This document shows positions 9,172 through 58,597 of a stretch of DNA of 64,000 nt, one piece after another. Positions within the stretch are counted from its first letter, which is position 1. Every line of letters begins with the position of its first letter. The notes beneath the pieces were generated by a model. It had not been told where the DNA came from. It did no database searches and saw only the letters and a program-made list of their open reading frames with translations. The stretch covers positions 1 through 64,000 of the forward strand of contig DKFD01000011.1 in the NCBI GenBank assembly GCA_002452735.1, read 5' to 3'. This stretch comes from Patescibacteria group bacterium UBA6805. Its GTDB lineage: Bacteria; Patescibacteriota; Minisyncoccia; Minisyncoccales; Minisyncoccaceae. Position numbers and translations under genes: made by a program.

Positions 9172-9174
9172 TTT

Positions 9175-10479: not shown

Positions 10480-10672
10480 ATAAAAACTGCATTGACGAAC
10501 AATGCAGGAAATAATTCCTGAACTGGGGGCTAACTTTAGCATTCGGGCTGAAAGTCAAGAATTCCCCTGAGGAATAGTCCAGTATAAACCAAACAATCCG
10601 TTAACTACAGAAAATCCCTACCCCCAGTTCAAGAATCATTTTATGTTATTAGAATAACACACTTTTAAAAAA

Positions 10673-23075: not shown

Positions 23076-23080
23076 ATTGT

Positions 23081-24581: not shown

Positions 24582-24708
24582 AAAATTACTATATTTTACC
24601 ACAAACAGCGGGGAGGTTTCAAGGCGTGGGGAGCGAGATGTTGACAAAAACCAGCACATTGTTTATTATTATATCAGTCCTTTGACAGGATGATACGGAG
24701 ACTTAACC

Positions 24709-27125: not shown

Positions 27126-29159
27126 TTAGGATATGGAGTTGGTAATAATGTCCAGTTTTTTGGTTATTTCTTTTTTCATGTTTTTTGCCTCTGTCGTCGT
27201 TAAATTATTAAGTTCTTGAATTTTAGCATTGGCCTGAGCCGTCCATATCTTATTGCTTTTTACGGCTTCTTTTTGTTCTTCGCTTAGGTTCTTGAAAAGA
27301 TTATAGATTTGCCTTTGGTTGAGGCCCGTTACATGCTTTTCAAAATCAAAACCGTCAAAAGTCGAGGGGTTTTGTAGCGCGTCTCTTTGCTGTTGCGTCC
27401 CGCGTTCATCAAAATATTTTCGGTCTTTTTCTGTTAGATTTGCCGCAACGAAAATATTCGTCAGAGAATCTGTCCTTATTTTTTCCTGTTTTTCTTTGGC
27501 ACTCATTTTTGACATAATGTCTGCCGTGGTTTGTTTTCCGTCCGTCAGCTTTTCAGCCTCTTGGGGAACAAACTTGGCAAACTCTTTTTTGCTAAACCCG
27601 TAGTTTCCGGCCGTCTTAATGTTTTTCGTTAAATAATCTATTTCTCCGTCATTAAGGTCTTTTTTCTCCATTAGTATTTGCAATGCCATGTGCTTTTTTA
27701 TGTTATCTTCTCTTGTCATGGGGGTAATGCCGCTAATTCTGCGCAATCCGTCGGTTGTTAAATTTTCCATCGGCTCTTTAAACTGTTTGAATTCTTTTTC
27801 TTCCATTCCTGCCGCAGTTCCCGGTTTTTCAAGGCCGATATCTTCTTTTCTCCTTGTTACCCATTGTTTTGCTCCTTCTGTTCGCTCCAGCGGAGATTTT
27901 ATCATCCCAGTCAAGCCGGCCGTGCTTGCAACCCTGCTTTTCTCGTCCACTTTGGCGGTCAGGGCTTCCTTAACACCGGTTTTTGTTCCGCCATACAGTC
28001 CCCCGCCCAAAACATAGGCGGCTCTTTTGGCCAGTCCATCGTCTTTAGTAAGAGCAGCCTGGGTTTTTGCTCCGGCATAGGCTCCGGTGGCGAATCCTGC
28101 TCCGGCAGCAGTCAGTCTTCCGAAGGCCTGCCTTCCATATCCGGTTGCCATTTCCGCTATTTGTCCGCCCGAAGAAACTGTTATGAAAAACCCGACAACA
28201 AGGAAGGCAAGGGGGACAATAAGACCAAGTAAACCACCAAGTCCAACAAGTCTTCCTCCTGGCTCTGAAACAAGCGGACTAATGGCCATCGTGGCCATTG
28301 TTTTATTTGACAGGTAGAGAGAGAAGCTGGCCGGAATACCGATAACCGTCCATTGAAGGAAATTGTTCCACCATTCATCCCAATAAGTGATGCTGGGAAA
28401 TATTTTTTGGAGATATTTTCCTTCGGGAAAAACCTTGCTGGCAAAGGCGATGGGAGAAACTATGACCAAAATCCACAATACAATGTGCCTGGCCAAGAAT
28501 ATGAAAGCGTAAAGGAAATATATGACAGTGGCGAATATGGCGAAAAGAAGGTAAGCGATAGGAAAAATGGGATCGTCAAAAGTAAAAGATTTGGACCGTA
28601 GTCCTTCGAGAATTATCTTTGCCATGTCGTAATTAATTCCACTGGTTAAAAATAAACCCATTAATTTGTTGGCAAAATCAATCATCACGCCGGCGATTAC
28701 CGGGGTGAAATTAATCAAAAGAGCTATGCCGACGAAATTAATCAATGCTTTTTTGGCTTTTGTTTCCTGAAAGCCGAGAATGATACTGATGGCAACGGCC
28801 ACCAAGCCGAAGACAAGAGCAACGTTGGCCAGGTTTCTTACCGTTTCCCATCCCATTTTGACGACGGGATTGTCTTGAATGGTGGTTCCCATGAAATCAG
28901 GACTGATAACCCAGGCCAACAAATCGTTGCCAACCTGCAATATTCCTTGGGCTATGCCAGAAAGCGTAAGGGTAAAGACAGCAAGAATCGCAGACCCTAT
29001 ATTAACAGAGTCTTCGTTTCCGCCAACAAATTGCGCTATCTTACTAATCATGGTGGCCCCGGCTATAATCTCAAACAGTTGAGCCCGGGCCAGAATAGGA
29101 GTAAGGATGAATAATAGAGAAAGGAAAATTATAAAAAATGTTTTGATTGAATGTTTCAT
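27126..29159 (-). CDS. VirB6/TrbL-like polytopic membrane protein with long K/E-rich C-terminal tail
   Basis: 677 aa; signal peptide, at least 6 predicted TM helices in the first 330 aa, Gly/Ala-rich linker, hydrophilic coiled-coil-like C-terminus; genomic association with VirB4. Confidence 0.5.
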   Translation of the reverse strand: MKHSIKTFFIIFLSLLFILTPILARAQLFEIIAGATMISKIAQFVGGNEDSVNIGSAILAVFTLTLSGIAQGILQVGNDLLAWVISPDFMGTTIQDNPVVKMGWETVRNLANVALVFGLVAVAISIILGFQETKAKKALINFVGIALLINFTPVIAGVMIDFANKLMGLFLTSGINYDMAKIILEGLRSKSFTFDDPIFPIAYLLFAIFATVIYFLYAFIFLARHIVLWILVIVSPIAFASKVFPEGKYLQKIFPSITYWDEWWNNFLQWTVIGIPASFSLYLSNKTMATMAISPLVSEPGGRLVGLGGLLGLIVPLAFLVVGFFITVSSGGQIAEMATGYGRQAFGRLTAAGAGFATGAYAGAKTQAALTKDDGLAKRAAYVLGGGLYGGTKTGVKEALTAKVDEKSRVASTAGLTGMIKSPLERTEGAKQWVTRRKEDIGLEKPGTAAGMEEKEFKQFKEPMENLTTDGLRRISGITPMTREDNIKKHMALQILMEKKDLNDGEIDYLTKNIKTAGNYGFSKKEFAKFVPQEAEKLTDGKQTTADIMSKMSAKEKQEKIRTDSLTNIFVAANLTEKDRKYFDERGTQQQRDALQNPSTFDGFDFEKHVTGLNQRQIYNLFKNLSEEQKEAVKSNKIWTAQANAKIQELNNLTTTEAKNMKKEITKKLDIITNSIS

Positions 29160-29530: not shown

Positions 29531-32500
29531 ATGGACAAAAAGAAAATTATTTTTATTTTAATCCTTCTCGTTCTTCCTTTTTTTGTTATGGCTCAAGCCG
29601 GCCTGGAGAACGATTATCCGGCTATTGGCGGGACCCAACCCACGGACAGTTCTTCCCCGGCCGAATTCTTAAAATACATTTTCAACCTGGGAATTCTTTT
29701 CGGCGTCATTGCCGCTGTTTTCGTTTTGATTTCCCAGGGCGCGACCATGCTCATGGCCAAAGGAGAAATGGCCCTGGTCATTCTGGCTCAAGAAAAAATC
29801 AAAAGGGTTTTTGTCGGCCTCCTGATTCTTTTAGGCTCTTACATCATTTTAACAGCCATTAATCCCGATTTGAAGGTTATAAAATTCAGTCCCTTGGAAG
29901 TTTTTGAAAACATAATAAACAAGCCCGGAACCGAAGAAGAAACCTACCCTCTGTCGGAATTCGAGGAAATCCCCCTGGGCTCCATTCTGGAAAGCATTCT
30001 AGCCGCCAATTCTTCGGAAAGAATCTACAACGACAGAACCGAAGAGCTTTGCTACGCTTACGATGAAAACGGAGATACGATTGATAGAAATGACGACAAG
30101 AAGATAGACGAGAACGACCTGCTAAAAGGAATGGATATGTATTATTGCCTGTCGGAACTGAACAAAGCCATAATCAAGAAGATAAGAGATTTGAACGGAG
30201 GCAACTCTTTGTGTAACAGTCCCTCCAAAGGCGGGCCGATTGAAGAAATGAAAACTTTGATTGCCAGCGGCTGCAGCTGTCAGGCTTGTGATGTCTGGAA
30301 ACCAAATTATTATTGTCCGGGCTCCGAATGTTATCAGTGTATGACCTATGCCTGCGGGGAATGCAGTACTTGCTGTAAGGACCACTGCTCTTGTTGCGGC
30401 CGGGCTTATTACGCCCCGGATTTGGGTTGCCAACAGGTTAACGATAAATCAAGAGACCCTTGCGCGGCGGTCAGGGACGGCATAGATTGCGCCAGAAACG
30501 AAATCAAGCTGCGAGTTGACGGAAACGGATACGGCGTTCCAGGAGCGGCCGAGGATAAATGCGCTTTTACCAGATATTTCAACGAGAATGAATATAAGTT
30601 TTTAACAATCAGCGAGGGAAGGGAAAGGTTGGAATCGTTCAGAAACTATTTTCAGAACCATTTGACGGACTTGATAAAAGCGGAATCAATGATGAAATCT
30701 CCTTATGGGGAGAGAATATCGTTGGCCGAGTTTGAGGCCATTCGGTCCAAAGACCAATACAAAAAGACGGTGGCCAAAGAATTCCAAAACACCAACAGCG
30801 ATTATTCTTATAATCCGGTAAAATACTGTCGCGATTTCAATTGTACGGAATACAAAAACGGAGACGAAAAAAATCTTTGCGTGTCCGGAGGGAGAGTTGA
30901 TTTGACCCAGGAACTGATGGAAAAAGAAAAACTGATAGACCCCTTGTATGATAAGGAGCCCGAGATTTTTGACAAGAGAGTCTGCCAAGTAAATCAAATA
31001 CAAAACGGAAACGATACAGAGAGTTATTATTACGACGGCGACGGAGCGACCTTCTATTTCCAGGCGGGGTACAAGACAAAAAAAACAAGCAATCAAGAAA
31101 AATGCTCAATTGATTCCGCCATTGAGAAAGAAACCATCAAGAGCTTGATTCCTATTGGAGAAACGGTTGATGCTACGGAAAAATTCGCTGAAGACGTTTT
31201 GGTTTTAATAAATCAAATTATGTCGGAAACCCGGGAGACTATTGAGAAAGCAATTCAGTTAAGTGCCCTGCCAGAGAAGTGTGATTGTTCTCAGGGCTGC
31301 AGCAACAGATCTGACTGCAGATGTTCTACCAGCGAAGAAGGATGCACCAGCTGTTCTTGTGGTTCGTGTCTGGCCTGCGATGCCAGATCCCAAACGCTGT
31401 GCACTTGCTGTAAAGACTGCGAAGAGGTGGAGGTCGTTGATGAGAATATTCCCAGTCCTTGGGACGATATGACCAGTTTTGGCTATTGCCCGTCTTGCCC
31501 GTCCCTTTATTCGACCGGAGACGTGAACGAGTACTGGACCTATTGCCCTTGTAGCGGAATCCTGCTTTTTCCCAATATATCGCTTATTAACGACCCTAAA
31601 ACCCAGTTTTGTTATTTGGGAGAAGAGCTTGGTTCTTATTGTTCTTTAAGTTTTCAAGAAGAAAAATGCCAAACAGCATTTAGAAGATTGCCTTTAATGT
31701 GCATGCTTTCAAGAGTAAGCGCTCCCAGATTTGTAAATTATACCATAGAAAGCTGTCAAGCAGTCAGCCAGAACCCAACCGTGGCTCCCATTCTTTGCGG
31801 AAGCGGTTTGAATACTTATTACACTCAAAAAAACATTTTAACGTTAAAACCCAAGTCAGAAATAATCGTTGTTTGCGAAGGACAGCAGCCGGTTAATCAA
31901 GAAGCAATAAATAATTTAAACGTCCACTGCAGCACGAGTTGCAAGGGTGAACCGGGATGTCAAGGACGTCTTGATTGGATAAGCGCCGATGAATTTATCT
32001 TAACAAATTATTTCTGCAAAGGCCCCATGGCTCCGAAAGACCCCAAGGGCCTAATAGGGAGAGACAGTACGCCTTATAATAATTCCATGTCCATTTTTTT
32101 ACCCGGCGGCCATGAAATAGTCAGCATCGAGGCCATTCCTTTGACCACCGGCGCGAGGTCTGTCAAGTATTATCATCTCGGGGGTTGCTCCACGGAGTAT
32201 ACCGACGATGGACCGGTGGAGCATTGCACAGAAGCGGGCTACAACACCTATCATTTTTGGGACGGCGGTTATGCTTTGAAAATCAAGGTTGTCAATACGA
32301 TAAGAATAAAACGGGGAGAGATTGACAATCAGGCTTATTACGTCTGTCCCTATAATGACATAAAAGACAGGCAGTGCCGGATATTCAAATACAGCGACGA
32401 TGTAGAGCCGAATTATCCGGAAAACATTGATACGGATTACGACTGCCGGGATGAAAATTCTTCCGGCGCGGGATATCTTCAGAAGATAGAGCTTTTGAAC

Positions 32501-32902
32501 GACCGCCTGAACAATTTAATCCAAGGCAAAAACTTAAGGGAGGGCGATGTCAATCGCTGGACGATTCTGGAAAAGCTCTCTTTGACAAGAAAGAGGGCGG
32601 AATCCTGCGTCCGGGGCTATGGCTTTCCCCACAAAGAGGACTTGACCGAGCAAAGGATATTTTCCTGCCAGGAAGGGATTGATGCCACAATTTTGAATTC
32701 TTTGGTCGTTTTGCCCGACTTCCCCTACCCCCAAACCGGAAATTACTGGAATTGCTATCCTTTGAACAGCAGTTTTCTGACCAATGACCAGAAAGAATCT
32801 TGCTATATCAACAAAGATGCCGAGGGAACCGAAGCAGACCCGAAATGCCAAAGATTAATCAAGGGCATGATGGATAATTATTATTGCTGCCAGGGAGAAT
32901 AA
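29531..32902 (+). CDS. secreted VirB2/TrbC-like pilin domain fused to a very large Cys-rich ectodomain
   Basis: 1123 aa; signal peptide '...FFVMAQA', then two hydrophobic helices separated by a short 'AKGE' loop and ending 'ILTAINP' (T4SS-pilin-like); the remainder is dense with CxxC/CC clusters, e.g. 'CSCQACDVWKPNYYCPGSECYQCMTYACGECSTCCKDHCSCCG'. Confidence 0.6.
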   Translation: MDKKKIIFILILLVLPFFVMAQAGLENDYPAIGGTQPTDSSSPAEFLKYIFNLGILFGVIAAVFVLISQGATMLMAKGEMALVILAQEKIKRVFVGLLILLGSYIILTAINPDLKVIKFSPLEVFENIINKPGTEEETYPLSEFEEIPLGSILESILAANSSERIYNDRTEELCYAYDENGDTIDRNDDKKIDENDLLKGMDMYYCLSELNKAIIKKIRDLNGGNSLCNSPSKGGPIEEMKTLIASGCSCQACDVWKPNYYCPGSECYQCMTYACGECSTCCKDHCSCCGRAYYAPDLGCQQVNDKSRDPCAAVRDGIDCARNEIKLRVDGNGYGVPGAAEDKCAFTRYFNENEYKFLTISEGRERLESFRNYFQNHLTDLIKAESMMKSPYGERISLAEFEAIRSKDQYKKTVAKEFQNTNSDYSYNPVKYCRDFNCTEYKNGDEKNLCVSGGRVDLTQELMEKEKLIDPLYDKEPEIFDKRVCQVNQIQNGNDTESYYYDGDGATFYFQAGYKTKKTSNQEKCSIDSAIEKETIKSLIPIGETVDATEKFAEDVLVLINQIMSETRETIEKAIQLSALPEKCDCSQGCSNRSDCRCSTSEEGCTSCSCGSCLACDARSQTLCTCCKDCEEVEVVDENIPSPWDDMTSFGYCPSCPSLYSTGDVNEYWTYCPCSGILLFPNISLINDPKTQFCYLGEELGSYCSLSFQEEKCQTAFRRLPLMCMLSRVSAPRFVNYTIESCQAVSQNPTVAPILCGSGLNTYYTQKNILTLKPKSEIIVVCEGQQPVNQEAINNLNVHCSTSCKGEPGCQGRLDWISADEFILTNYFCKGPMAPKDPKGLIGRDSTPYNNSMSIFLPGGHEIVSIEAIPLTTGARSVKYYHLGGCSTEYTDDGPVEHCTEAGYNTYHFWDGGYALKIKVVNTIRIKRGEIDNQAYYVCPYNDIKDRQCRIFKYSDDVEPNYPENIDTDYDCRDENSSGAGYLQKIELLNDRLNNLIQGKNLREGDVNRWTILEKLSLTRKRAESCVRGYGFPHKEDLTEQRIFSCQEGIDATILNSLVVLPDFPYPQTGNYWNCYPLNSSFLTNDQKESCYINKDAEGTEADPKCQRLIKGMMDNYYCCQGE

Positions 32903-32921
32903 TAAATTAATTGAATCAAGC

Positions 32922-34247
32922 ATGAAGAAAAAAATATTATTTCTGTTCCTTCTGCTCTCTCTTGTTTTGGTTTCCAATGTTTATGCCTTGGAAGCGCAGT
33001 ATCCTGAAATTCTGGGTAAAACCATAACCGATGAAACCACGCCGGCTGGTTACGTGGTATATTTCTTCTATCTGGCCATGTCCTTGGGAAGCGTTCTGGT
33101 TTTCATAATCTTGGTCATGGCCGGAATTGATTTTATCACCGCAGGAGGAGAGCCGGCGAAAATAAGCGAAGGGAGAAAAAAGATAATCAGCGCCATTGTC
33201 GGCTTGATAGTTCTTTTCAGCTCTTTCCTGATTCTTAACAGTATCAATCCCGCCTTGCTGAAGATAGAGCTGGAAAAATTGGAATGTCCGGGAGGAATTT
33301 CAATCGTGAAGCAGAAAGCTGACGGGAAGAAAGTTGATGACTGCATAACCGGCAGCGTAAGCAACATCGAAGGAGACGTTATTGAGACAAAGGGATGGGT
33401 TTTTTCGGGTTGTCTCGTAAAAGAGGTCTATCTTTGCACTCAGCCGGGCTTCAAAGGAACCTGCACTAAAGTTTCTGACCCCAAAAGTCAGAATTTTACC
33501 TGCCAACCCAATTACCAGTTCACAAACGGTACCAGCTTAAGCGGAGTCAAATCAGTAAAATTCGTCTGGCGCTCACCCGGAGTATATTTGTACGACAACA
33601 TCAACTTTGAACCAAACGACCTCAGCAAAAGCCCGAAGCATCTCGGCAGCAACATTAAAAATATGAACGACGTCGGTTTTGACAATATGGCTCAATCATA
33701 CCAGTTAATTTTCCCGGAAACGGAAACAGCCGAAGAGATTCCGATATATTACGGTGCGGTTTTTTTTGACAGCTTCAATTATTCGGGCAAATGCAGTCTG
33801 GAAATAATGAACCAAAAGGACTTGGGAGTTCCCACTTCCATCGGAAGGAACACCTTGTCTTCGGCCATTGTTTTCACCCAAAAAGAGACCGATACCCTCA
33901 AGGATTTGGGCGACATTGTTTTGTACAATAACATAGATTGCGGACAAAGTACCAGCGAGGAAGTAAAGAAATGCTCCCTGAATATTTACAATTACATAAC
34001 AGTCGGAAAGATTAAAGACGATTGTCCCGAATTCGAGGACGGAGACTACGTGCTTTCTTTCAGCATCAACGGACCCGGAGGCATGATTTTAAAAGGAAGC
34101 CAGAACGCGCTTTGCGAATATTTTGATTCCAAGAGCATGGTTTCCGGCAGTTGTTATCCGAGCTTAAAAACCAAATCAACAATTTACGTCCAGGGGCCTG
34201 GAGGAACCAAGCCTGAGTCTTATATAATCTTCCCGGTGGACAATTAA
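32922..34247 (+). CDS. secreted VirB2/TrbC-like pilin domain fused to beta/gamma-crystallin-like repeats
   Basis: 441 aa; signal peptide, pilin-like helices '...VLVFIILVMAGIDFITAGGEPAKISEGRKKIISAIVGLIVLFSSFLILNSINP'; C-terminal repeats with Greek-key-like 'GVYLYDNINFEPND...SYQLIFPE' and 'AVFFDSFNYSGKCSLEI...LSSAIVF'. Confidence 0.6.
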   Translation: MKKKILFLFLLLSLVLVSNVYALEAQYPEILGKTITDETTPAGYVVYFFYLAMSLGSVLVFIILVMAGIDFITAGGEPAKISEGRKKIISAIVGLIVLFSSFLILNSINPALLKIELEKLECPGGISIVKQKADGKKVDDCITGSVSNIEGDVIETKGWVFSGCLVKEVYLCTQPGFKGTCTKVSDPKSQNFTCQPNYQFTNGTSLSGVKSVKFVWRSPGVYLYDNINFEPNDLSKSPKHLGSNIKNMNDVGFDNMAQSYQLIFPETETAEEIPIYYGAVFFDSFNYSGKCSLEIMNQKDLGVPTSIGRNTLSSAIVFTQKETDTLKDLGDIVLYNNIDCGQSTSEEVKKCSLNIYNYITVGKIKDDCPEFEDGDYVLSFSINGPGGMILKGSQNALCEYFDSKSMVSGSCYPSLKTKSTIYVQGPGGTKPESYIIFPVDN

Positions 34248-34252
34248 TAAAT

Positions 34253-35467
34253 ATGAAAAAACTATTTACAATAATTTTGGCCTTTTCCCCTGCCGTCGTT
34301 CTGGCCCAGTATCCGATTATCAGCGGAAGAGCCATAACCGACAAATCCACTTTTTCCGAATATGTTCTTTACTATTTCAGCTTGGCCCTGGTTGTCGGGA
34401 TTGTGGCCGCGGTTCTCGTCTTGATAACCGCCGGCATCAATTTTCTGATTTCCCGGGGGGATTTGTACAGAAGGAACAACGCCAAAAGAATGATAACCGG
34501 CGCTTTTGTCGGCTTGGTCGTTCTTTTCGGTTCTTTTGTAATTTTGAACGCATTAAATCCTTCATCTACGGGCTCGATTCTCGATCCGGAGCCGATTGTC
34601 GCTAACGGCATTTATCTAATCAAAGAAGACGGGGAAAAACTTTTAATCTACCAGAATATCGGCAACACCGAAAAGAATTTTAACGGCATAGAATGGATTT
34701 CCAGCCAGGAAGATTTACCGGCGATATACGTTTACGCCGATAAAGGCTTCAAGGGCGTGCCCGTTGAAATCAAGAACGGAGAATCTCTCCCCATTTCCCA
34801 GGGCTCTTCAATCGCCTTTTTATGGAAAACCGTCGGAGTTTATCTTTACGACAAGACGGATTACCAATTAAACGAAAAGAGCATTCCTTTGCCGGTCAAG
34901 TTCGACCAGCCGTCTCTGGGAAGCAGTTCTTTTGATAATATAGTGCAATCAATTAAGATAAATCAGCCCGAGGATGGTTCGGTTTTGGGCGTTGTTCTTT
35001 TTTCAGAGCCCGACTACAGGGGAACCTGCTCCTGGGTTTTGGGAGACATGCCAGATTTGAGTCAGACAAGGAGCGAAGAAAACAACCCGGCCTTGGGCAA
35101 CGGCATCCTTTCTTCTTTGATTGTTTTGAACACGGCTTCGGGCTCGCCTACGGCCACTTTTTACAATAGAGCCGATTGCCAGCATGTTGAACAAGACCCG
35201 AGAAGCAAGAAATGCAGCATCTCTGTGATAAATAAAACAGAAACCTTCAAGGAATCCTGCCCCGACTTTGAGGGAGATATTTTGTCTTTTGCCTTAAGCC
35301 AAGGGACAGCCGTACTTTTGAAAACGGAAAACGGCCAGTGCCAGTTTTTCAAAAGGCAAAAACCCCAAGAATGCGTCAGTTTGATTAAATACAGCTATAT
35401 TTACAGTCCCGACCCCGAAAAATCCCTTACGCCCTATTCTTTCACTATATTTTCTTTGGAGAAATAA
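34253..35467 (+). CDS. secreted VirB2/TrbC-like pilin domain fused to beta/gamma-crystallin-like repeats (paralogue of the preceding gene)
   Basis: 404 aa; same N-terminal architecture ('...VLITAGINFLISRGDLYRRNNAKRMITGAFVGLVVLFGSFVILNALNP'); 'GVYLYDKTDYQLNE...VQSIKINQPE', 'VVLFSEPDYRGTCSWVL...LSSLIVLN'. Confidence 0.6.
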   Translation: MKKLFTIILAFSPAVVLAQYPIISGRAITDKSTFSEYVLYYFSLALVVGIVAAVLVLITAGINFLISRGDLYRRNNAKRMITGAFVGLVVLFGSFVILNALNPSSTGSILDPEPIVANGIYLIKEDGEKLLIYQNIGNTEKNFNGIEWISSQEDLPAIYVYADKGFKGVPVEIKNGESLPISQGSSIAFLWKTVGVYLYDKTDYQLNEKSIPLPVKFDQPSLGSSSFDNIVQSIKINQPEDGSVLGVVLFSEPDYRGTCSWVLGDMPDLSQTRSEENNPALGNGILSSLIVLNTASGSPTATFYNRADCQHVEQDPRSKKCSISVINKTETFKESCPDFEGDILSFALSQGTAVLLKTENGQCQFFKRQKPQECVSLIKYSYIYSPDPEKSLTPYSFTIFSLEK

Positions 35468-39185: not shown

Positions 39186-41288
39186 TTATTTTCTTGCTTC
39201 TTTTAATGATAGATTAATTCTGCCCTGTTCGTCAATAGAGACGACTTTCACGGGAACAATATCCCCAATTTTCACCACGTCGCTTACCTTGTTTACCCTT
39301 TTTTCCGATAATTGAGAAATATGAACCAGGCCTTCCTGCCCCGGAAGCATTTCCACAAAGGCCCCGAAGTCAAGGATTCTTTTGACCTTGCCTTGGAAGG
39401 TTTCTCCCACCACGACTTCTCTGGTGATGTTGTTAATCCATTCCAGGGCTTTTTGGGCCGATTCTTCTTTTTCCGCGGTTACGAATATTTCGCCCGTTTC
39501 TTCAATGTCAATGGAAACGTTGCAAGCGTCGATTATTTCATTGATAATTTTTCCTCCCGGGCCGATGACCTCGCCGATTTTCTCGGGATTGATTTTGATA
39601 ATGAATATTCTCGGCGCATAAGAAGACAGTTGTTTCCTCGGTTCAGGGAGAACCGCCCTCATTTTTTCCAGGATTTCCAGTCTGGCTTTTTTTGATTGTT
39701 CCAGCGCCTCTTTTATTATCTTCCCCGTAATACCCCTGACCTTTACGTCCATTTGCAGGGCATTGATTCCGTCTTTTGTCCCGGCCACCTTTAAATCCAT
39801 GTCTCCGTAGTGGTCTTCCTGTCCCTGGACATCGGTAAGAATCTTGTATTTTTTTTCTTCCGTGTTTTTGTTTTTGTCCATTTCCATCATCATTCCCATG
39901 GCAATACCCGAAACAGGATTTTTAATGGGAACTCCTCCGTCCATCATGGCCAGACAAGCAGCGCAAGTTGAGGCCATCGAACTTGAACCATTTGAACACA
40001 AAACTTCGGAAACCAGCCTAATGGTATAGGGAAAGATTTGAGCATCGGGGATAACCTGCCTTAAGGCCTTTTCTGCCAGCATGCCGTGTCCGATTTCTCT
40101 TCTTCCCGGACCCCTCAGAGCGCCGATTTCTCCGACGCAGGAAGGAGGAAAGTTATAGTGGTGCATGAATCTTTTTTTCCCCTCGACTTCCATTTCTTCC
40201 ATTATTTTTTGCTCTCCCGGAGAACCCAAAGTCAGAAAAGAAAGAACCTTGGTTTGGCCTCGGCAGAATAATCCCGAGCCGTGGACTCTTTCAAAAAGTC
40301 CGGCCCGGCAGTTAATTTCCCTGATTTCGTTGAGGCCCCGGCCGTCAATTCTTAAATTGCGGTCAATGACCATCTGATGTATTGTTTTTTCTCCTTCTTG
40401 CTCCAAAAGATGAAGGCCGTGGCTTACCTTCTCCGCTTCCTCATATTTGTTTCTTAAGTGTTCTTTTAATTCTTCTCGGAAAGAATCAAAGTCTATGAGG
40501 GATTTTTCCATCTTCCCTTCGGCGAATTCTTTTATTTCCTTTTCCAGCTCCTCGTCCTCTTTTTTTTCTCCAAGTAATATTTTTTCTTTTCCCATTTTTT
40601 GGGCGATTTCTTCCCCGAAAATCAGCAGCTTTTCCTGAAGAGGCCTGGTTTTTTCAATGGCCTTGTTGATTTCTTCTTCTTGGGCTCCGTCAAATTCTCC
40701 CTCAATCATATTGACCAAAATTTCTTTTTTTGATTCTGAATAAAGAGCCGAAAAGAACAAATCAAAGCTTCCTGCCTCCCGTTCCTCTTTGGCGGGGAAG
40801 GCCACAAGTTCTCCGTTCTTTTTTCCCATTCTTAAGGGGGCAACCGGTCCGTTCCAGGGTATATCCGAGACGAGAAGAGCCAGAGAAGAGGCAAAAAGGC
40901 CTAAAACCGCCGGGTCATTTTCTTTGTCCCAGGAAATACAGGTGGCGATGATTTGAACTTCCCGCTTGAAATTATCCGGGAAAAGAGGCCTGATTGCCCT
41001 GTCAATCAGCCTGGAATTAAGAATGGCTTTTTCACTCGGCCTCGACTCTCTTTTTAAAAATCTTGAGCCCAGGATTTTGCCCACGGCGTAATATTTTTCC
41101 TCGTAAGTCACGGTTAAAGGAAAAAAATCGCTTCCCTCGATTTCTTTCTTGGCCATTACGGCCGTTGCCATTATTATCGTGTTGCCGAGCTTTATCCAAA
41201 CCGAACCATTGGCCCTTTCGGCCAGATCGTTTATCTCCACCTCCAAAGTTTTGCCGTCAACGTCTAATTTAAAGATTTCGGATTTCAT
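39186..41288 (-). CDS. pnp: polyribonucleotide nucleotidyltransferase (PNPase)
   Basis: 700 aa; two RNase PH domains, KH and C-terminal S1 domain 'GETFQGKVKRILDFGAFVEM'. Confidence 0.95.
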   Translation of the reverse strand: MKSEIFKLDVDGKTLEVEINDLAERANGSVWIKLGNTIIMATAVMAKKEIEGSDFFPLTVTYEEKYYAVGKILGSRFLKRESRPSEKAILNSRLIDRAIRPLFPDNFKREVQIIATCISWDKENDPAVLGLFASSLALLVSDIPWNGPVAPLRMGKKNGELVAFPAKEEREAGSFDLFFSALYSESKKEILVNMIEGEFDGAQEEEINKAIEKTRPLQEKLLIFGEEIAQKMGKEKILLGEKKEDEELEKEIKEFAEGKMEKSLIDFDSFREELKEHLRNKYEEAEKVSHGLHLLEQEGEKTIHQMVIDRNLRIDGRGLNEIREINCRAGLFERVHGSGLFCRGQTKVLSFLTLGSPGEQKIMEEMEVEGKKRFMHHYNFPPSCVGEIGALRGPGRREIGHGMLAEKALRQVIPDAQIFPYTIRLVSEVLCSNGSSSMASTCAACLAMMDGGVPIKNPVSGIAMGMMMEMDKNKNTEEKKYKILTDVQGQEDHYGDMDLKVAGTKDGINALQMDVKVRGITGKIIKEALEQSKKARLEILEKMRAVLPEPRKQLSSYAPRIFIIKINPEKIGEVIGPGGKIINEIIDACNVSIDIEETGEIFVTAEKEESAQKALEWINNITREVVVGETFQGKVKRILDFGAFVEMLPGQEGLVHISQLSEKRVNKVSDVVKIGDIVPVKVVSIDEQGRINLSLKEARK

Positions 41289-41551
41289 GATTTGAGTCCG
41301 ATTTTTTTAACCAGCTCTTTGTATTTTTTTTCGTTGGTTTTTTCCAAATACTTTAAAAGTTTTCTTCTTTTGGCCACCATTTTAAGCAGGCCTTTTTTGG
41401 AATGAAGGTCCTTTTTGTGCTTTTGCAAATGATTGAGAAGTTTTTCTATTTCTTCCGACAAAAGAGCGATCTGGACTTCGGCCGAGCCAGTGTCTTTTTC
41501 GTGCAATTTGAACTTGTTGATGACTTTTTCCTTTTCCGTTGTTGAAATCAT
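41285..41551 (-). CDS. rpsO: 30S ribosomal protein S15
   Basis: 88 aa; 'HEKDTGSAEVQIALLSEEI...LQKHKKDLHSKKGLL'. Confidence 0.9.
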   Translation of the reverse strand: MISTTEKEKVINKFKLHEKDTGSAEVQIALLSEEIEKLLNHLQKHKKDLHSKKGLLKMVAKRRKLLKYLEKTNEKKYKELVKKIGLKS

Positions 41552-41577
41552 ATTTTTATTATTTATCTTTTTCTTGT

Positions 41578-41650
41578 GCCCCGTGAAGGACTCGAACCTA
41601 CAACCTTGAAGTTAAGAGCTTCCTGCTCTGCCAATTGAGCTAACGGGGCT
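41578..41650 (-). tRNA. tRNA-Lys (anticodon CTT)
   Basis: manual fold: acceptor GCCCCGT/ACGGGGC, D-arm GCTC..GAGC, anticodon loop CTCTTAA, T-loop TTCGAGT; one G-A at 27-43 and one T-T in the T-stem; no encoded CCA. Confidence 0.65.
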
Positions 41651-42042
41651 TAAGGATTTTTCTGGAAGAAGTAAAGGGGCCATTCCATCTGTCCCTTGGT
41701 TATGAAAGTTACGAATTCGTAAACGATAATCCAGGCGGAATAAATCAACAATATGCCGACGACGCCGTAAGTCAATATTTTTCTTCCCTGCTCCACTTTG
41801 CCCGGGTCGCCGCCGGCCGTCATGATGGTAATTCCGCCCCAGGCGAAGAAAAGAACGGCTAAAGGAGGAACCAGGTTGAAAAGGATGAAATTAACAACAT
41901 TGTTGATTAAAACAAAAAAGTCGCTAAAGGTGCAAGAATTCTGTCCTTCTCCGCCGCAGGGAACGAGTCCTTGTCCCAGAACCGGCGTGGCGAAAAACAA
42001 AAAAAGAGCGAAGAAAAGCAGATATTGTTTGATTTTTGACAT
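41650..42042 (-). CDS. short stand-alone VirB2/TrbC-like (T4SS-type) pilin
   Basis: 130 aa; signal peptide, then '...LAVLFFAWGGITIMTAGGDPGKVEQGRKILTYGVVGILLIYSAWII', the same two-helix plus basic-loop architecture as the N-termini of the three fusion proteins; its stop codon touches the tRNA-Lys 5' end. Confidence 0.55.
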   Translation of the reverse strand: MSKIKQYLLFFALFLFFATPVLGQGLVPCGGEGQNSCTFSDFFVLINNVVNFILFNLVPPLAVLFFAWGGITIMTAGGDPGKVEQGRKILTYGVVGILLIYSAWIIVYEFVTFITKGQMEWPLYFFQKNP

Positions 42043-42084
42043 AAGCTTTTTTGAGTATAGCGGTTTTAAGTAAAAAAATCAAGG

Positions 42085-42156
42085 TGCCCCCGGCAAGATT
42101 CGAACTCGCACCACTGGTTCCGAAGACCAGTACTCTATCCATTGAGCTACGGGGGC
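42085..42156 (-). tRNA. tRNA-Arg (anticodon TCG)
   Basis: manual fold: acceptor GCCCCCG/CGGGGGC, anticodon stem CTGGT/ACCAG with loop CTTCGGA, T-loop TTCGAAT; CC but no full CCA encoded. Confidence 0.7.
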
Positions 42157-42158: not shown

Positions 42159-42836
42159 TTAATCTTTTTTAAAGAGCTTTTTCAGGGACTTGATTCTGAA
42201 GGGAGGAACAGTATCCTGGTCAAAGATGAGCCGGTTTTCCATCAACTCGTTTCTTTTGTCCGATTCCAAAACTTCCTTAATGGGGCTCATCCTTTTTAAG
42301 AAAATGGGAATAAGGGAAAGAAGAATGAGATAGCCGATGGGCTCAAAATTTAATCCGCCCTTGAAAGTGATGAAAATGCCGGTAACCAGAGAAAGAATGG
42401 TGCCGACCGAAGCGGTCCAGATAATGGCGAAGACAATGGTGGGAACCAATATGATGATCAGGGTGGCGGGAGAAAACACCAGCATGGCTCCCATCAGGGC
42501 GCCCAATCCCCGGCCCCCCTTGAATCCCAGAAAAAGAGACCAATTGTGACCGATGACTGACATGACGCCGCAGAAAATCTGAACGGAAACAGGCAGGCCG
42601 TATTCTTTGGCCAGAAAGACCGCCAGGAAACCTTTACCAATATCCAGGGCGGCTGTCAATATTCCCTGCCATAAACCCACGTTTTTGGCCACGTTTGAGC
42701 CCGAGCTTTTTTTCCAGCCCATTTCAAGAATGTTTTTGCCGGAAGTAACCCTGGTGATTATATAGGCGAAAGGAATGGAGCCCAGGACATAGGCCAGGGC
42801 CATAAAAGCAAGACAAACAAGATATTGGTTAATCAT
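42159..42836 (-). CDS. plsY: PlsY-family glycerol-3-phosphate acyltransferase (paralogue 1)
   Basis: 225 aa; 'AYVLGSIPFAYIITRV', 'SSGSNVAKNVG', multi-TM; the family G-S-G-N-x-G-A-T-N motif is degenerate here. Confidence 0.65.
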   Translation of the reverse strand: MINQYLVCLAFMALAYVLGSIPFAYIITRVTSGKNILEMGWKKSSGSNVAKNVGLWQGILTAALDIGKGFLAVFLAKEYGLPVSVQIFCGVMSVIGHNWSLFLGFKGGRGLGALMGAMLVFSPATLIIILVPTIVFAIIWTASVGTILSLVTGIFITFKGGLNFEPIGYLILLSLIPIFLKRMSPIKEVLESDKRNELMENRLIFDQDTVPPFRIKSLKKLFKKD

Positions 42837-54190: not shown

Positions 54191-57100
54191 ATGGAAAACA
54201 AAATTTTCAAAACAATATTTTTTCTTTCAATAATATCAATGATTTTTATTGGAGGAGATGTTTGGGCAGATACTTGTAATGTGTGGACGTCTAAAACTAG
54301 TATGTCTATTAGTAGGGGTCACATGGGTTCGGCAGTAGTTAACAATAAAATTTATGTAATAAGTGGTTATTTAGGCAACTATGTAAGAACAAACAAAGTT
54401 GAAGAATATGACCCAGCCACTAACACATGGACAACTAAGGCCGACATACCTACAGCTAGAGAAATGTTTGGGGCCGCAGCTGTAAACAATAAAATTTATG
54501 CAATTGGAGGAGGAACTCCAAACACAACAGGTATAGTTGAAGAATATGACCCAGCCACTAACACATGGACAACCAAGGCTAACATGCCTACAGATAGAGC
54601 TGATTTTGGTATTGCAACTGTAAATAATAAGATTTATGTAATTGGAGGGATAAGAAATGACGGTGGCGCTGGTAATAAAGTTGAAGAATATGACCCAGCC
54701 ACTAACACATGGACAACCAAGGCCAACATGCCTACTGCAAGAGTGTCTCTTACTGCCGCAGCTGTAAACAATAAAATTTATGCAATTGGAGGGATAAGTG
54801 ATGGTGGCTACACAGATCTAAAAATAGTTGAAGAATATGACCCAGCCACTAACACATGGACAACTAAGGCTAACATGCCTACTGCAAGGAGTTATCTTAG
54901 TTCAAACTCACCAGCTATCAATGGTAAAATTTATGTCATTGGAGGGACTTCTGGAGGATCTTCTACAAACAAAGTTGAAGAATATGACCCAGCCACTAAC
55001 ACATGGACAACTAAGGCTAATATGATTACAGGTAGAGTTGGTCTTGTTACGGATGCAGTAAACAATAAAATTTATGCGATAGGTGGTTATGATAATAGTT
55101 CTTATGTATCAATTAATGAAGAATATGCTCCTTGTAACAACGGTTCTTGTGGAACAGCTAACGGTCACGGGTACTATTCAACATCATATATTGATACTTC
55201 TTCTGAAAGATGTTATGCAGGAACATTTGGCGGTTCGTTTGTCGACAATGGTTCTTCTTGGGGCTGGAGTTGTATAGGAACTGATGGTGGGACAACAGCA
55301 TCTTGTAGTGCCAATAAAGTTTTGGCAGGAAACTCAAACGGTCAGACACTGAAAAATCCACCGATAAACAACCTCTGCATGTATGGAGAACCGACGACAC
55401 CGATACTGACTGAAGATGTTTGGTATTGGTTTTGTAGAGATAATCCTGGAGTAGACGCAGTCGGTTACACATATAAAACCGCTTGTGGCTATTCTGACGG
55501 AGGAAGCTCATCTTATCCTCCCGAGACAGATCTTTGCAAGCATGGAGAACCCTCTTCAGTGATAACGGGCGAAACATATACATGGACCTGTACTGGGAAT
55601 GATTCCCTTTCGGTTAGTTGTTCTACAGACATTAATAGTAAATGCGGAACAGCTGATAGACATGGATACTCGGCGACTTCATACATAGATCTTAGTGAAG
55701 AAAGATGTCAGTCAGGATCAGCATTCGGCGGTGTATTTATCGACAGCGGTTCTTTTTGGAATTGGACCTGTGGCGTTAGTTCTTCGTCTTGGACGATAAA
55801 TGCATCTATGCCGGTTAGCGGTGAAGATATTAGGCCTCACACGGCGGTTATCAATGGAAAAATTTATATCATCAAAACATCGGCCCCTAGTGTTCATGAA
55901 TATAATCCAAGTACTAATACTTGGGTAGCAAAGGCCAGCATGCCCACTGCGAGAGAGGATCTTTCTAAGGCGTCTAAGGCGATAGTTATTAATAACAAAA
56001 TATATGTATTAGGAGGAAGGATTTTAGGTGTTAATTTAAAAAACAATGAAATGTATGATCCGGCTACTAATACTTGGACGATAAAAGCGCAAATGCCCAC
56101 AACTGCTTATGAATCGGGCATAGTAGCTGTTAATGGAAAAATATATCTAATCGGTATGAATGGTGCTTCTAGAACAGTCTATGAATATAATCCAAATACC
56201 GACACATGGACAAACAAAGGATCAGCCATTCCCAACGAAAGGACTGCTAATACTGGAGGGATGACAGCGGTTGTCGATGGCAAAATTTATGTCATTGGAG
56301 GTAATTCTACGGGTTCTACTGACGAATACGATCTAGTCACTAACACCTGGACGACCAAAGCCAATATGGTTTTTCCGATACAAGATGGAGTAGTAGCGGT
56401 CGTCGATAAAAAAATATATATTCTGGGGGGCAGAGATATGGACTGGATACCCAAAATGTGGAACCAACAATACGATCCGACCACTAACACATGGAATAGT
56501 TTAGCTAATGTCCCTTATAATACATCCAATGTGGTCCCCGGATTGGCTGTTCTCGACAACAAAATATATCTGATGGGACTTAGTGGTAGTTCTACTACAA
56601 GAAATTTTTATGAATTCAATCCAATCACTAATATTTGGTATTATAAAACACCAATGAACTTCGAAAAAGAACGTTTTGGGGTAGCGGTCGTCGACAATGT
56701 AATTTATACCATCGGGGGATGGAATCGCAACGAAAACGAATCATACGGGTTTTCGAGTACCTGCTTTGCCAACAAGGTTGCGACTGGAAATGCTGACGGT
56801 CAAATACTGAAAAACGAGCCTTTAGTCGATCTTTGCGAATACGGAGAAACAACAACACCGATCCTGGCTGACGATGTTTGGAATTGGACCTGTACCAATA
56901 ATCCCGGAGTGGACGCATTCGGCCTTGCTTATAAAACAACTTGTGGTTCTTCCCATGGAGGATTTTCTTCAGAGCCACCAACTGATTTATGTAAACACGG
57001 AACGCCTTCTGAGGTTATAGATAATCCTTTAACCTATGATTGGACCTGTATGGGAGATGATTCATTGGCAGTTACTTGTCAGGCTCCAAAAGAGTTTTCT

Positions 57101-58597
57101 TGCGGTAATAATTTTATAGATTCTCGTGATAGTCAAACATATTCTACTGTTCAAATAGGAGACCAATGCTGGATGAAAGAGAATTTAAATTATACAACAG
57201 GAAATAGTTGGTGTTATGATGATAATCCTGCTAATTGTGATATTTACGGAAGATTATACAATGCAAGCACCGCTCAAACTGCTTGTCCTTCGGGGTGGTA
57301 TTTGCCAAGCGACGCCGAGTTTGGTGTTTTATTTAGTTTTGCTAGTCAGAGCATGAATAAGCTTCGAGCTTCCCCTCCTGCTTGGGACGGACAAGACAGT
57401 TATGGATTTAATGTACTTCCCTCTGGAGGGCGAGTTAGTGGCGCATACGAGCATCTTGGTTCGATGAGTGGTTTTTGGGATTCTGGTACGGTATTAGGAT
57501 ATCATATTGTCAAGCAGTTTTTTTCAGGCATGGATGTGGCGATTGCATACGCAGGAGAACCTTACGAGCCCAATGGTTATGCGGTTCGATGCCTTAAAGG
57601 TCCTGTTGATGGCGCTTGCGGTGCCAGCCAGGGCGGACTTTCGTCCACTCCTCCCGAGGCAGGTCTTTGCAGCGCCGGCAATCCTTCTTTTGTGACAACC
57701 AATGCCACGACATATACCTGGACCTGTAACAGTCCCGGAGGCGGGAGCGATGCTAATTGTTCGTCCAATAGGATATCATTCAACAATCCTTATGACATTA
57801 ACAGCGATGAATCGTGCTGGTTCTGCGAATATTACTATGACACGGGTGGAATCCTGAGAGAAGGAAAACTAAACAACGGCATAGCGGATTTGGAATTTAA
57901 GTTTACCACCAACGCTTCCGATTACAACTCTTATAAATTTGCCATAGGTACAATTAATGACGTGAGCCAGGCAATGCAAACCGACGGATGGCTTTCCGTT
58001 TCTTCTTCTGAAACATTATTCAGCGGAGCAAAAGTAAGAAGGTCGGGAGCAGACCAGAAAGAGGGGAGCAACGGTTTCTTGCTTACTTATACCAAGACAT
58101 ACTATTGGTGGGTGAAATTAAGGAAGCCGGACTTGACGGAAACAGAATGGATGGCGGGAGGAACATTAATCACTCCCGAGAAAGCGTTCCCGATAGTAAG
58201 GATAGCGGCCGACAAGGCAATCGTGACCGTGGGAACGAACATTCAGTATTGTGCCAACGCAGAGGGTGATTGCGCCCCGGTCTGCTGGACCGGAACGGGT
58301 GCCCCAGTGGTTGACCCTGATAATTATAACTGGCATTGCAGTGTTTGCTTTAATTCAAGCAATCAGCCCGTGGCTTGTACTAGCGGAAACGCATCTTTCT
58401 CATGGGTTTTGCCTACGGACAGCGGTGCCTACATGAATTCAACAACCGAACTAAGCGCCAATCCGGTATTCAGATTCAACCAGGTAATCCAGACATTTAA
58501 ACCGGGATTGGCCATAACAGGGTCCGAGTGCGCCGCCGAGGGAGAAACAGGAACAAAGGCGCCGTTGCCCAAATGGAGGGAGGTTTCACCGTTTTAA
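54191..58597 (+). CDS. giant secreted Kelch beta-propeller / FISUMP-domain protein
   Basis: 1468 aa; signal peptide; five near-identical Kelch blades 'NKIYxIGG...VEEYDPATNTWTTKANMPTAR' followed by a second, diverged propeller; two copies of an approximately 105-aa Cys module ('CxANKV..G..G..LKN.P...LC.YGE.TTPIL..DVW.W.C..NPGVDA.G..YKT.CG.S.GG.SS.PP.DLCKHG.PS.V.....Y.WTC.G.DSL.V.C'); a Fibrobacter-succinogenes-paralogous (FISUMP, TIGR02145-like) domain 'DSRDSQTYSTVQIGDQCWMKENLNY...CYDDNPANCDIYGRLYN...CPSGWYLPSD'. Confidence 0.7.
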   Translation: MENKIFKTIFFLSIISMIFIGGDVWADTCNVWTSKTSMSISRGHMGSAVVNNKIYVISGYLGNYVRTNKVEEYDPATNTWTTKADIPTAREMFGAAAVNNKIYAIGGGTPNTTGIVEEYDPATNTWTTKANMPTDRADFGIATVNNKIYVIGGIRNDGGAGNKVEEYDPATNTWTTKANMPTARVSLTAAAVNNKIYAIGGISDGGYTDLKIVEEYDPATNTWTTKANMPTARSYLSSNSPAINGKIYVIGGTSGGSSTNKVEEYDPATNTWTTKANMITGRVGLVTDAVNNKIYAIGGYDNSSYVSINEEYAPCNNGSCGTANGHGYYSTSYIDTSSERCYAGTFGGSFVDNGSSWGWSCIGTDGGTTASCSANKVLAGNSNGQTLKNPPINNLCMYGEPTTPILTEDVWYWFCRDNPGVDAVGYTYKTACGYSDGGSSSYPPETDLCKHGEPSSVITGETYTWTCTGNDSLSVSCSTDINSKCGTADRHGYSATSYIDLSEERCQSGSAFGGVFIDSGSFWNWTCGVSSSSWTINASMPVSGEDIRPHTAVINGKIYIIKTSAPSVHEYNPSTNTWVAKASMPTAREDLSKASKAIVINNKIYVLGGRILGVNLKNNEMYDPATNTWTIKAQMPTTAYESGIVAVNGKIYLIGMNGASRTVYEYNPNTDTWTNKGSAIPNERTANTGGMTAVVDGKIYVIGGNSTGSTDEYDLVTNTWTTKANMVFPIQDGVVAVVDKKIYILGGRDMDWIPKMWNQQYDPTTNTWNSLANVPYNTSNVVPGLAVLDNKIYLMGLSGSSTTRNFYEFNPITNIWYYKTPMNFEKERFGVAVVDNVIYTIGGWNRNENESYGFSSTCFANKVATGNADGQILKNEPLVDLCEYGETTTPILADDVWNWTCTNNPGVDAFGLAYKTTCGSSHGGFSSEPPTDLCKHGTPSEVIDNPLTYDWTCMGDDSLAVTCQAPKEFSCGNNFIDSRDSQTYSTVQIGDQCWMKENLNYTTGNSWCYDDNPANCDIYGRLYNASTAQTACPSGWYLPSDAEFGVLFSFASQSMNKLRASPPAWDGQDSYGFNVLPSGGRVSGAYEHLGSMSGFWDSGTVLGYHIVKQFFSGMDVAIAYAGEPYEPNGYAVRCLKGPVDGACGASQGGLSSTPPEAGLCSAGNPSFVTTNATTYTWTCNSPGGGSDANCSSNRISFNNPYDINSDESCWFCEYYYDTGGILREGKLNNGIADLEFKFTTNASDYNSYKFAIGTINDVSQAMQTDGWLSVSSSETLFSGAKVRRSGADQKEGSNGFLLTYTKTYYWWVKLRKPDLTETEWMAGGTLITPEKAFPIVRIAADKAIVTVGTNIQYCANAEGDCAPVCWTGTGAPVVDPDNYNWHCSVCFNSSNQPVACTSGNASFSWVLPTDSGAYMNSTTELSANPVFRFNQVIQTFKPGLAITGSECAAEGETGTKAPLPKWREVSPF
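54390..55120 (+). repeat. about five tandem DNA-level repeats (period about 145 bp) sharing a near-identical 50-60-nt core GTTGAAGAATATGACCCAGCCACTAACACATGGACAAC(T/C)AAGGC inside the Kelch gene
   Basis: cores at about 54399, 54536, 54683, 54827 and 54976. Confidence 0.8.

Follow-up and report, generated by a model that had tools for sequence, protein, structure and literature searches.

A probable VirB2-like pilin encoded between tRNA-Arg and tRNA-Lys in methanogen-parasitizing Minisyncoccaceae

We analyzed a 64,000-nt stretch of contig DKFD01000011.1 from Patescibacteria group bacterium UBA6805 (hereafter the window), with emphasis on a 130-aa open reading frame (ORF) that the ORF listing places at 41650-42042 on the minus strand, starting with ATG. 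The initial annotation had given the same ORF and described its product as a pilin of a type IV secretion system (T4SS). Our results support the view, which we consider probable, that the gene encodes a cargo-less, VirB2-like structural pilin of family PF18895, belonging to an origin-proximal T4SS of monoderm type (VirB4 CD1110/MPF-FATA-like) in Minisyncoccaceae that parasitize methanogens. Two aspects are new here: a tRNA-Arg/promoter/pilin/tRNA-Lys unit that is conserved in Minisyncoccaceae, with the cultivated type species among them, and a link between the sandwiched pilin and published expression data, made through an inferred locus tag. In other respects, the pilin is unremarkable within its family, which has been described before and is very large: 43,104 representatives of 50%-identity clusters were found at E <= 1e-3, the best matches being mostly short stand-alone proteins and the remainder fusions or multi-module proteins.

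The assignment to the T4SS pilins was borne out by Pfam. Residues 43-108 matched PF18895 (T4SS_pilin) on profile positions 6-69 of 71 with 53.3 bits against a cut-off of 26.6, and the precomputed annotation of the identical protein likewise gave PF18895. The protein displays the pattern of this family, i.e., a signal peptide and then two hydrophobic helices with a G-G-D/N-P turn that carries basic residues. The Sec-type signal peptide occupies codons 1-24 (41971-42042, minus strand; MSKIKQ, hydrophobic core, VLG|QG), with a signal peptidase I site predicted after Gly24 from the -3/-1 rule only; relatives carry AxA-type cleavage sites in the same alignment column. According to Pfam, AlphaFold2 and alignments, the mature pilin of about 106 aa (41653-41970, minus strand) consists of an LVPCG...C loop, a helix (39-74), the basic turn AGGDPGKVEQGRK, a second helix (80-115) and the tail WPLYFFQKNP. 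Homologue alignments revealed Cys29 and Cys37 as invariant residues of the loop preceding helix 39-74. The AlphaFold2 model, built with 14 homologues (mean pLDDT 73.5), exhibited helices at 3-23, 39-74 and 80-115 and an AGGDP turn between the last two. An identity as type IV pilus pilin was rejected, since the N-terminus (MSKIKQYLLFFALFLFFATPVLGQGLVPCG) holds no G|(F/M)xxxE prepilin-peptidase motif. One subgroup of orthologues (L010, L012, L014, L031, L033, P0006) showed the insertion ADCPEYKxGDPIV after the signal peptide (alignment columns ~27-40) together with an extra Cys in helix 1, resulting in four Cys instead of two; perhaps the exposed loop at the N-terminus contains a second disulfide in these sequences.

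Furthermore, the N-terminal ~110 residues of the pilin aligned with the N-termini of three fusion proteins of 1123, 441 and 404 aa, encoded on the plus strand within 29531-35467 (29531-32902, 32922-34247 and 34253-35467), which combine an N-terminal pilin module with large Cys-rich C-terminal domains. The aligned module comprises the signal peptide, helix 1, the AGGDP-type turn and helix 2. When a profile of stand-alone homologues was run against the 334 window ORFs of at least 45 aa, the three fusion ORFs alone were matched (E 1.1e-6, 1e-9 and 2.7e-8 for the 1123-, 441- and 404-aa proteins). PF18895 itself scored 30.0 bits for 32922-34247, above the cut-off, and 22.3 bits for 34253-35467, below it. 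The alignment that had been proposed with the original annotation thus revealed a conserved two-helix module, and both the claim that this module and the signal peptide are common to the pilin and the three fusions, and the claim that 41650-42042 stands alone without a cargo domain, held up; it is the only cargo-less copy within the 64-kb window. The fusion proteins are candidates for minor or tip subunits. Those of 441 and 404 aa are full-length paralogues (31% identity, E 1e-48), which implies that the fusion set expands and contracts. At the same place, Ca. Microsyncoccus encodes four fusion proteins of 1087, 465, 442 and 416 aa (L059 15554-22115).

ARAGORN and Rfam agreed on the tRNA genes at either side of the pilin gene, all on the minus strand: tRNA-Arg(TCG) upstream at 42085-42156 (RF00005, 69.7 bits) and tRNA-Lys(CTT) downstream at 41577-41649 (63 bits). 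The pilin ATG lies 42 nt past the discriminator base of tRNA-Arg, and the stop codon TAA (41652-41650) abuts the first base of tRNA-Lys (41649) with a gap of 0 nt. Upstream of tRNA-Arg, a plsY-like gene (42159-42836, minus strand) ends with its stop codon 2 nt before the tRNA; downstream of tRNA-Lys follow rpsO (41285-41551, minus strand; Pfam Ribosomal_S15) and pnp (39186-41288, minus strand; assigned from gene tables). The distance to the apparatus amounts to 12.5 kb for the VirB6-like gene and 18.5 kb for the VirB4 gene, with 6.2 kb to the last fusion gene. The position between the two tRNAs, the contact of the stop codon with the tRNA 5' end and the separation of about 12 kb from the apparatus had all been described correctly at the outset. 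Against five orthologues, dN/dS was 0.05-0.16 with dS up to 1.8, indicating a real gene, and the identical protein is present on 19 public contigs from methanogenic habitats. An antisense ORF in the pilin region (41798-42073, plus strand) was judged spurious.

A comparison of related genomes, also suggested by the initial annotation, showed that the gene stays between the same two tRNAs. The order tRNA-Arg(TCG)/pilin/tRNA-Lys(CTT) was detected in 8/8 genome representative loci and in 9/9 complete metagenome loci, in both cases at 52-92% protein identity; two truncated metagenome loci carried whichever tRNA the contig still reaches. In all 18 complete loci, window counted, the gap between stop codon and tRNA-Lys was 0 or 1 nt. 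The relatives bear the names Paceibacterota or Minisyncoccaceae. The nearest named ones are Ca. Microsyncoccus archaeolyticus (57% pilin identity) and Minisyncoccus archaeiphilus (41%), both parasites of methanogenic archaea. The complete genome of M. archaeiphilus keeps the sandwich with a 7-nt gap, and both further Ca. Microsyncoccus assemblies keep it by gene order. Every close relative found preserved the full order tRNA-Arg, promoter, pilin, tRNA-Lys, rpsO, pnp. More distant orthologues retained the downstream tRNA-Lys(CTT)-rpsO, but in a looser arrangement with one 128-nt gap, one extra 118-aa ORF and one inserted homing-endonuclease-like ORF.

The conserved promoter corresponds to a sigma-70-type promoter-like element (42054-42082, minus strand) that starts right after tRNA-Arg and is composed of a -35 box TTGATT (42082-42077), a 17-nt spacer and a -10 box TATACT (42059-42054), the latter ending 11 nt before the pilin ATG. 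All close relatives (50-92% protein identity) keep the -35 box, the 17-nt spacing and the -10 box as TATACT or TATAGT. In a second subgroup of relatives, TTGATT-17-TATAGT ends 9 nt before the ATG and the -35 box is shifted by 7 nt relative to the tRNA; M. archaeiphilus exhibits TTGATT-16-TG-TATAAT. The 40-nt spacer between tRNA-Arg and pilin differs at 1-2 positions between the window and L008/L009, while dS reaches saturation (1.2-1.6). Since the -10 box ends 11 nt before the ATG, the pilin leader would be very short and lack a Shine-Dalgarno motif. Such a near-leaderless mRNA appears to be normal here, as only 13 of 59 likely genes showed a Shine-Dalgarno-like motif in their upstream regions under lenient settings, which suggests that leaderless mRNAs are widespread in this genome. 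Several genes that follow intergenic gaps (for example 5474-6637, 7567-8001, 13563-14774 and 24144-24659) carry TAnAAT or TGnTAnAAT boxes 6-8 nt before the ATG.

A scan of the window sequence revealed no terminator-like site between the pilin start and tRNA-Lys. An internal promoter-like match, TTGACT-16-TATTGT (41775-41748, inside the coding sequence), was discarded because it is not conserved at synonymous positions, and a terminator-like match at 42092-42080 proved to consist of nothing more than the acceptor end of tRNA-Arg and the promoter spacer, which is rich in T. Pilin and tRNA-Lys thus form a same-strand pair of coding sequence and tRNA without intervening terminator or conserved promoter. 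The simplest reading would be one transcription unit of promoter, pilin and tRNA-Lys, possibly extending into rpsO-pnp, in which pilin mRNA and tRNA-Lys probably share a transcript, from which RNase P frees the tRNA (rnpA is present at 19784-20122). In M. archaeiphilus, a 12-bp perfect hairpin (TTAGCCATTGAC...GTCAATGGCTAA, L063 9581-9640) is located between tRNA-Lys(CTT) and rpsO, so that the pilin/tRNA-Lys unit may be terminated separately in that genus; nothing comparable was seen in the window. Around tRNA-Arg(TCG), an A-rich leader and a T-rich trailer form a 22-nt inverted repeat (73% complementary, 42071-42092/42150-42171) that extends the acceptor stem. This repeat probably arose by chance, as a side effect of a plsY C-terminus rich in Lys and a promoter spacer rich in T.

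A more far-reaching proposal, which we regard as rather improbable, is that the pilin ORF and tRNA-Lys(CTT) constitute a conserved processing unit defined by RNase P, a counterpart of mitochondrial 'tRNA punctuation' that would be general for Patescibacterial pilins. The final codon before the stop encodes Pro (CCT or CCC; 41653-41655) in the window and in 17/17 orthologues at 50-92% identity whose 3' end could be read, while Asp is the last residue of the orthologue in M. archaeiphilus (41% identity). As known from work in E. coli, a C-terminal Pro slows translation termination. If the proposal were true, RNase P would cut at the 5' end of tRNA-Lys and thereby produce a pilin mRNA with the stop codon at its very 3' end; ribosomes terminating at Pro-stop, the folding pre-tRNA and RNase P would compete for the same few nucleotides; and pilin synthesis, pilin mRNA lifetime and the supply of an essential tRNA would be mechanically coupled. 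The tRNAs found after other pilin loci, tRNA-Leu(TAG) and tRNA-Trp, would then point to a general mode of T4SS pilin expression in minimal genomes. A link to the flanking tRNAs through codon supply was rejected: the pilin gene contains 0-2 AAG and 0-1 CGA/CGG codons.

Published expression data offered an independent view of the gene. In Ca. Microsyncoccus archaeolyticus PMX.50, the gene PMX.50_00571, named as a T4SS pilin, is one of the five most expressed genes with a signal peptide (Kuroda et al., PMC10936435). Table S4 of that study provides murE (00527), PilB (00537) and mrcA (00543) as anchors. Their window counterparts, a Mur ligase (135-1370), a PilB-type ATPase (9175-10479) and PBP1A (14839-16725), exhibit exactly the same spacing of +10 and +6 genes. 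Tags were assigned by counting called genes onward from mrcA, both on contig BTXY01000004.1 of PMX.50 and in another assembly of this species. The count yielded 560-563 for the four fusion genes, 568 for pnp, 569 for rpsO, 570 for tRNA-Lys and 571 for the sandwiched pilin, which makes it very probable that PMX.50_00571 is orthologous to the window gene. Under their inferred tags (00560-00563), the fusion genes do not occur in the top-five list. PMX.108_00341 was left unmapped, as the 22 kb of M. archaeiphilus sequence analyzed contain no Table S4 anchor, and the IJSEM description of M. archaeiphilus does not mention pilins or T4SS. Under this tag mapping, the comparison of expression levels foreseen in the initial annotation would favor the pilin over the fusion genes, but at low read depth and with two other pilins equally high. 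Its designation as the best candidate for the major pilin gains indirect support from the inferred orthologue in the top five; given the further short-pilin genes of relatives, it need not be the sole major pilin. We consider the sandwiched gene the best candidate for a constitutive shaft subunit, while the variable pilin arrays may supply alternative or host-specific subunits.

The apparatus that such a pilin would serve is encoded in the same window. A VirB4-like ATPase (21294-23153, minus strand) matched NCBIfam conju_CD1110 with 361.8 bits (cut-off 325) as well as Pfam P-loop_TraG; its VirB4_plasma score of 270 bits stayed under the 590-bit cut-off. It is accompanied, likewise on the minus strand, by a VirB4-N/TrsD/TraC-like core protein (23081-23722), a PrgI/VirB3-like protein (23722-24141) whose PrgI Pfam score was below cut-off, and a VirB6-like polytopic membrane protein of 677 aa (27126-29159). 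The latter had no Pfam match itself, but its positional orthologue in PMX.50 (638 aa) carries PF19590 TrbL_3. The genome thus encodes the VirB4, PrgI/VirB3-like and VirB6-like components expected in a host of PF18895 pilins. The replication-origin region at 16.7-21.3 kb contains dnaN (16722-17861, minus strand), dnaA (18084-19445, minus strand), rpmH (19641-19776), rnpA, yidC and jag and coincides with a local minimum of the cumulative GC skew; the T4SS cluster begins directly after jag, and the pilin gene lies ~22 kb from the origin. This layout agrees with the published arrangement in Patescibacteria, where the T4SS is relaxase-less, FATA-like, often near dnaA and equipped with VirB2-like pilins (Quinonero-Coronel et al. 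2025, PMC12102498). According to the same study, VirB2-like pilins are widespread in the phylum and often located away from virB4: a pilin was near virB4 in just 1,135 of 1,948 assemblies and not near in the other 813. VirB4 is 86% identical to its counterpart in Ca. Microsyncoccus archaeolyticus, compared with 75% for PNPase and 57% for the pilin (P0299, P0185, L011), suggesting a very strong constraint on the T4SS motor.

Taken together, the following route can be envisaged. Transcription would start at the gene's own TTGATT-17-TATACT promoter, as its conservation implies, and give an mRNA whose leader is only a few nucleotides long and lacks a Shine-Dalgarno motif. Read-through into tRNA-Lys(CTT), and probably rpsO-pnp, followed by RNase P cleavage would leave an mRNA that ends at the stop codon. 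Because pilin transcription would be tied to an essential tRNA/housekeeping unit, expression is expected to be constitutive. The prepilin would enter the membrane via Sec/YidC and be cut by signal peptidase I after Gly24, yielding a ~106-aa helical hairpin with the modeled fold; its AGGDPxKxxxGRK turn would face the cytoplasm and the Cys29-Cys37 loop the outside. By analogy to VirB2/TraA, VirB4 and the VirB3-like and VirB6-like proteins would extract the pilin and polymerize it into a pilus or conduit, in which the three fusion proteins might serve as tip or otherwise minor subunits, with their C-terminal domains presented to the host.

Several observations weigh against this reading. The PF04956 (TrbC/VirB2) score of the pilin, 22.4 bits (E 1.5e-4), remained under the gathering cut-off of 27.9 and indicates remote homology only. 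Foldseek ranked three chains of the Agrobacterium T-pilus VirB2 (8fai, 8cue, 8exh) first among 350,542 PDB chains, with 23-24% identity and target-normalized TM-scores of 0.62-0.64 for a model of pLDDT 73.5, but with E-values of 0.4-0.65 these matches lack significance, and a search of this kind discriminates poorly between short helical hairpins. A PDB sequence search with the family profile returned only a chance match to PsaF (E 2.4). So far, a T4SS pilus has not been reported from any Patescibacterium, and reviews speak only of the 'potential to elaborate conjugative pili'. On the expression side, each metatranscriptome sample contributed only ~1,600-12,000 reads for PMX.50, the same top five includes two more pilin genes (PMX.50_00607/00608; PMC10936435), and the tag mapping assumes gene calls equal to those of Prokka, which may differ. 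Relatives also possess, elsewhere in their genomes, tandem arrays in which 2-5 short PF18895 genes encode proteins of 103-223 aa. As regards the tRNA linkage, the mRNA that RNase P frees from E. coli secG-leuU decays in <30 s (Mohanty & Kushner 2007, PMC2241853), so that such a linkage argues for coupling and not by itself for high expression. Finally, coding sequences abut 3/7 tRNAs in the window, a general habit of this compact genome.

This last point bears on a serious alternative for the gene's location, to which we assign almost even weight: the tRNA position could be a frozen accident of genome compaction without regulatory meaning, the 0-nt junction reflecting the loss of a dispensable spacer. 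Intergenic spacers are indeed minimal throughout the window, plsY stops directly before tRNA-Arg, a 245-aa ORF overlaps tRNA-Arg(CCT), and distant orthologues tolerate gaps of 7 or 128 nt or an inserted ORF. Promoter and pilin/tRNA-Lys/rpsO order, however, persist in orthologues whose protein identity ranges from 92% to as little as 39%, and other pilin loci precede tRNAs as well. In many loci, a same-strand tRNA-Leu(TAG) follows pilin arrays at 42-65 nt, and the pilin of L036 lies 57 nt upstream of tRNA-Trp; a tRNA after pilin loci may thus be a recurring theme.

The arrays raise a second alternative, which we treat as tentative at best. Owing to the extra pilin genes in relatives, the sandwiched gene may be one of several interchangeable short pilins, with the main or host-specific shaft drawn from the arrays and the sandwiched copy acting as a constitutive basal variant or priming subunit. 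Loci of this second kind were found in L018, L023, L037, L040, L045, L043, L047-L050 and L055, with five tandem pilins in L023 (6001-8297). The metagenome-assembled genome STD2_195 holds both the sandwiched pilin (L010) and a four-pilin array (L018 2995-4942, ordered gyrA, methyltransferase gene, four pilins, tRNA-Leu(TAG)). Arrays of 2-11 pilins have been reported in 383 assemblies (PMC12102498), and the rank of PMX.50_00607/00608 in the expression list fits the same idea. Yet the sandwiched gene is single-copy with dN/dS of ~0.1 across genera, whereas array members average 25% mutual identity; it has a strong conserved promoter; and it is the sole cargo-less copy in a window that holds the whole apparatus.

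Less likely still, the protein could be embedded in the membrane as a component of the translocation channel, or form a short stub, without building an extended pilus. In monoderms, T4SSs of the FATA class normally operate without a VirB2 pilus, as the literature on Gram-positive T4SSs shows, and the VirB4 of the window is of the CD1110/monoderm type. NCBIfam NF045849, which describes pilin-like proteins of Mycoplasma integrative and conjugative elements (ICEs), gave marginal scores of 11.8 bits for the pilin and 15-18 bits for the fusion proteins (cut-off 40). On the other hand, signal peptide, hairpin and basic turn match the polymerizing VirB2/TraA pilins, VirB2 was the top, though not significant, structural match, and a highly expressed orthologue, as inferred here, would be more in keeping with a subunit that polymerizes than with a channel part needed in stoichiometric amounts. 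Integration at tRNA genes is a classic pattern, and mobile elements are the usual carriers of T4SS genes, but a remnant of a conjugative or integrative element inserted at the tRNA is effectively refuted by the lack of an integrase, of a duplicated tRNA 3' end and of att-like repeats at the locus, by a GC content equal to that of the surroundings, by housekeeping genes on both sides and by identical synteny across species and genera.

A cargo-less structural pilin at this locus would be of practical interest. A pilin array is known from Southlakia epibionticum (PMC12857230, citing Wang et al. 2023), and the same paper states that T4SS and a pilin array are essential in Southlakia. With the T4SS essential in the sole Patescibacterial species tested, our analysis picks a concrete pilin candidate among many VirB2-like paralogues. 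Its orthologue is present in M. archaeiphilus, the cultivated type species of the phylum (AP038758.1), again between tRNA-Arg(TCG) and tRNA-Lys(CTT). The pilin is single-copy, conserved, apparently highly expressed and available in a cultivated parasite of an archaeon, which makes it well suited for raising antibodies, purifying pili, labelling in cryo-ET and knock-down. Being compact, the promoter/pilin/tRNA unit in turn lends itself to tests of mRNA-tRNA co-processing, in a genome largely without Shine-Dalgarno motifs.

Two further features of the window deserve mention. The 245-aa ORF (60992-61729, plus strand) has an HTH-like N-terminus and an 'LYWAEG' motif, no Pfam match, and runs through tRNA-Arg(CCT) at 61643-61715. 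A homologue in L056 (1559-2377; 30% identity, E 6e-24) is located between the pilin orthologue and tRNA-Lys(CTT) and reads into the tRNA; this ORF family may be a selfish homing-endonuclease-like element aimed at tRNA 5' flanks. A 1468-aa protein (54191-58597, plus strand) contains many Kelch repeats and a Fib_succ_major domain and is a large putative surface or adhesion protein, which is unusual in a genome of so small a size.

Compared with known systems, the window protein shares with type IV pilus pilins the name, both kinds being present in these genomes; it differs in its ordinary Sec signal, which contains no G|F/M-xxx-E motif, and in forming a two-helix hairpin instead of one N-terminal helix with a globular head. 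The Mycoplasma ICE proteins Mbov_0395 and MMCAP2_0565 (NF045849) resemble it as small two-helix pilin-like proteins of a monoderm T4SS with a related VirB4, but the marginal match to this model means that the window protein is not a member. With VirB2/TrbC/TraA (PF04956; 8FAI, 8CUE, 8EXH) it has in common a long signal peptide, two hydrophobic helices, a short basic turn and small size. In contrast to these, it scores under the PF04956 gathering threshold, comes from a monoderm host without outer membrane, and possesses a conserved N-terminal Cys-Cys loop; its gene is chromosomal, away from virB4/virB6 and among housekeeping genes. Pilins of the VirB2/TrbC class polymerize into extracellular pili with bound phospholipid, their termini being processed or cyclized.

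The gene arrangement finds a parallel in E. coli secG-leuU (PMC2241853), where a small membrane-protein coding sequence is also directly upstream of a same-strand tRNA and RNase P sets the mRNA 3' end, as would be expected in the window. Here, however, with a gap of 0-1 nt, the stop codon would form the very end of the mRNA, a second tRNA is located upstream, and co-transcription is deduced from the gene layout. The closest likeness is to the PF18895 pilins of Patescibacteria/CPR, with an above-threshold score, the same length class, a signal peptide, the LVPCG...C motif and the AGGDP turn, and to those analyzed by Quinonero-Coronel et al. in particular, which belong to the same phylum and to a relaxase-less, origin-proximal, FATA-like T4SS. 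The tRNA context goes unmentioned in that study (0 occurrences of 'tRNA' in PMC12102498). Unlike the published PF18895 pilins, the window gene is single-copy, fixed between tRNA-Arg(TCG) and tRNA-Lys(CTT) and equipped with its own promoter instead of being part of a variable array, and the host of its lineage is an archaeon, not a bacterium.

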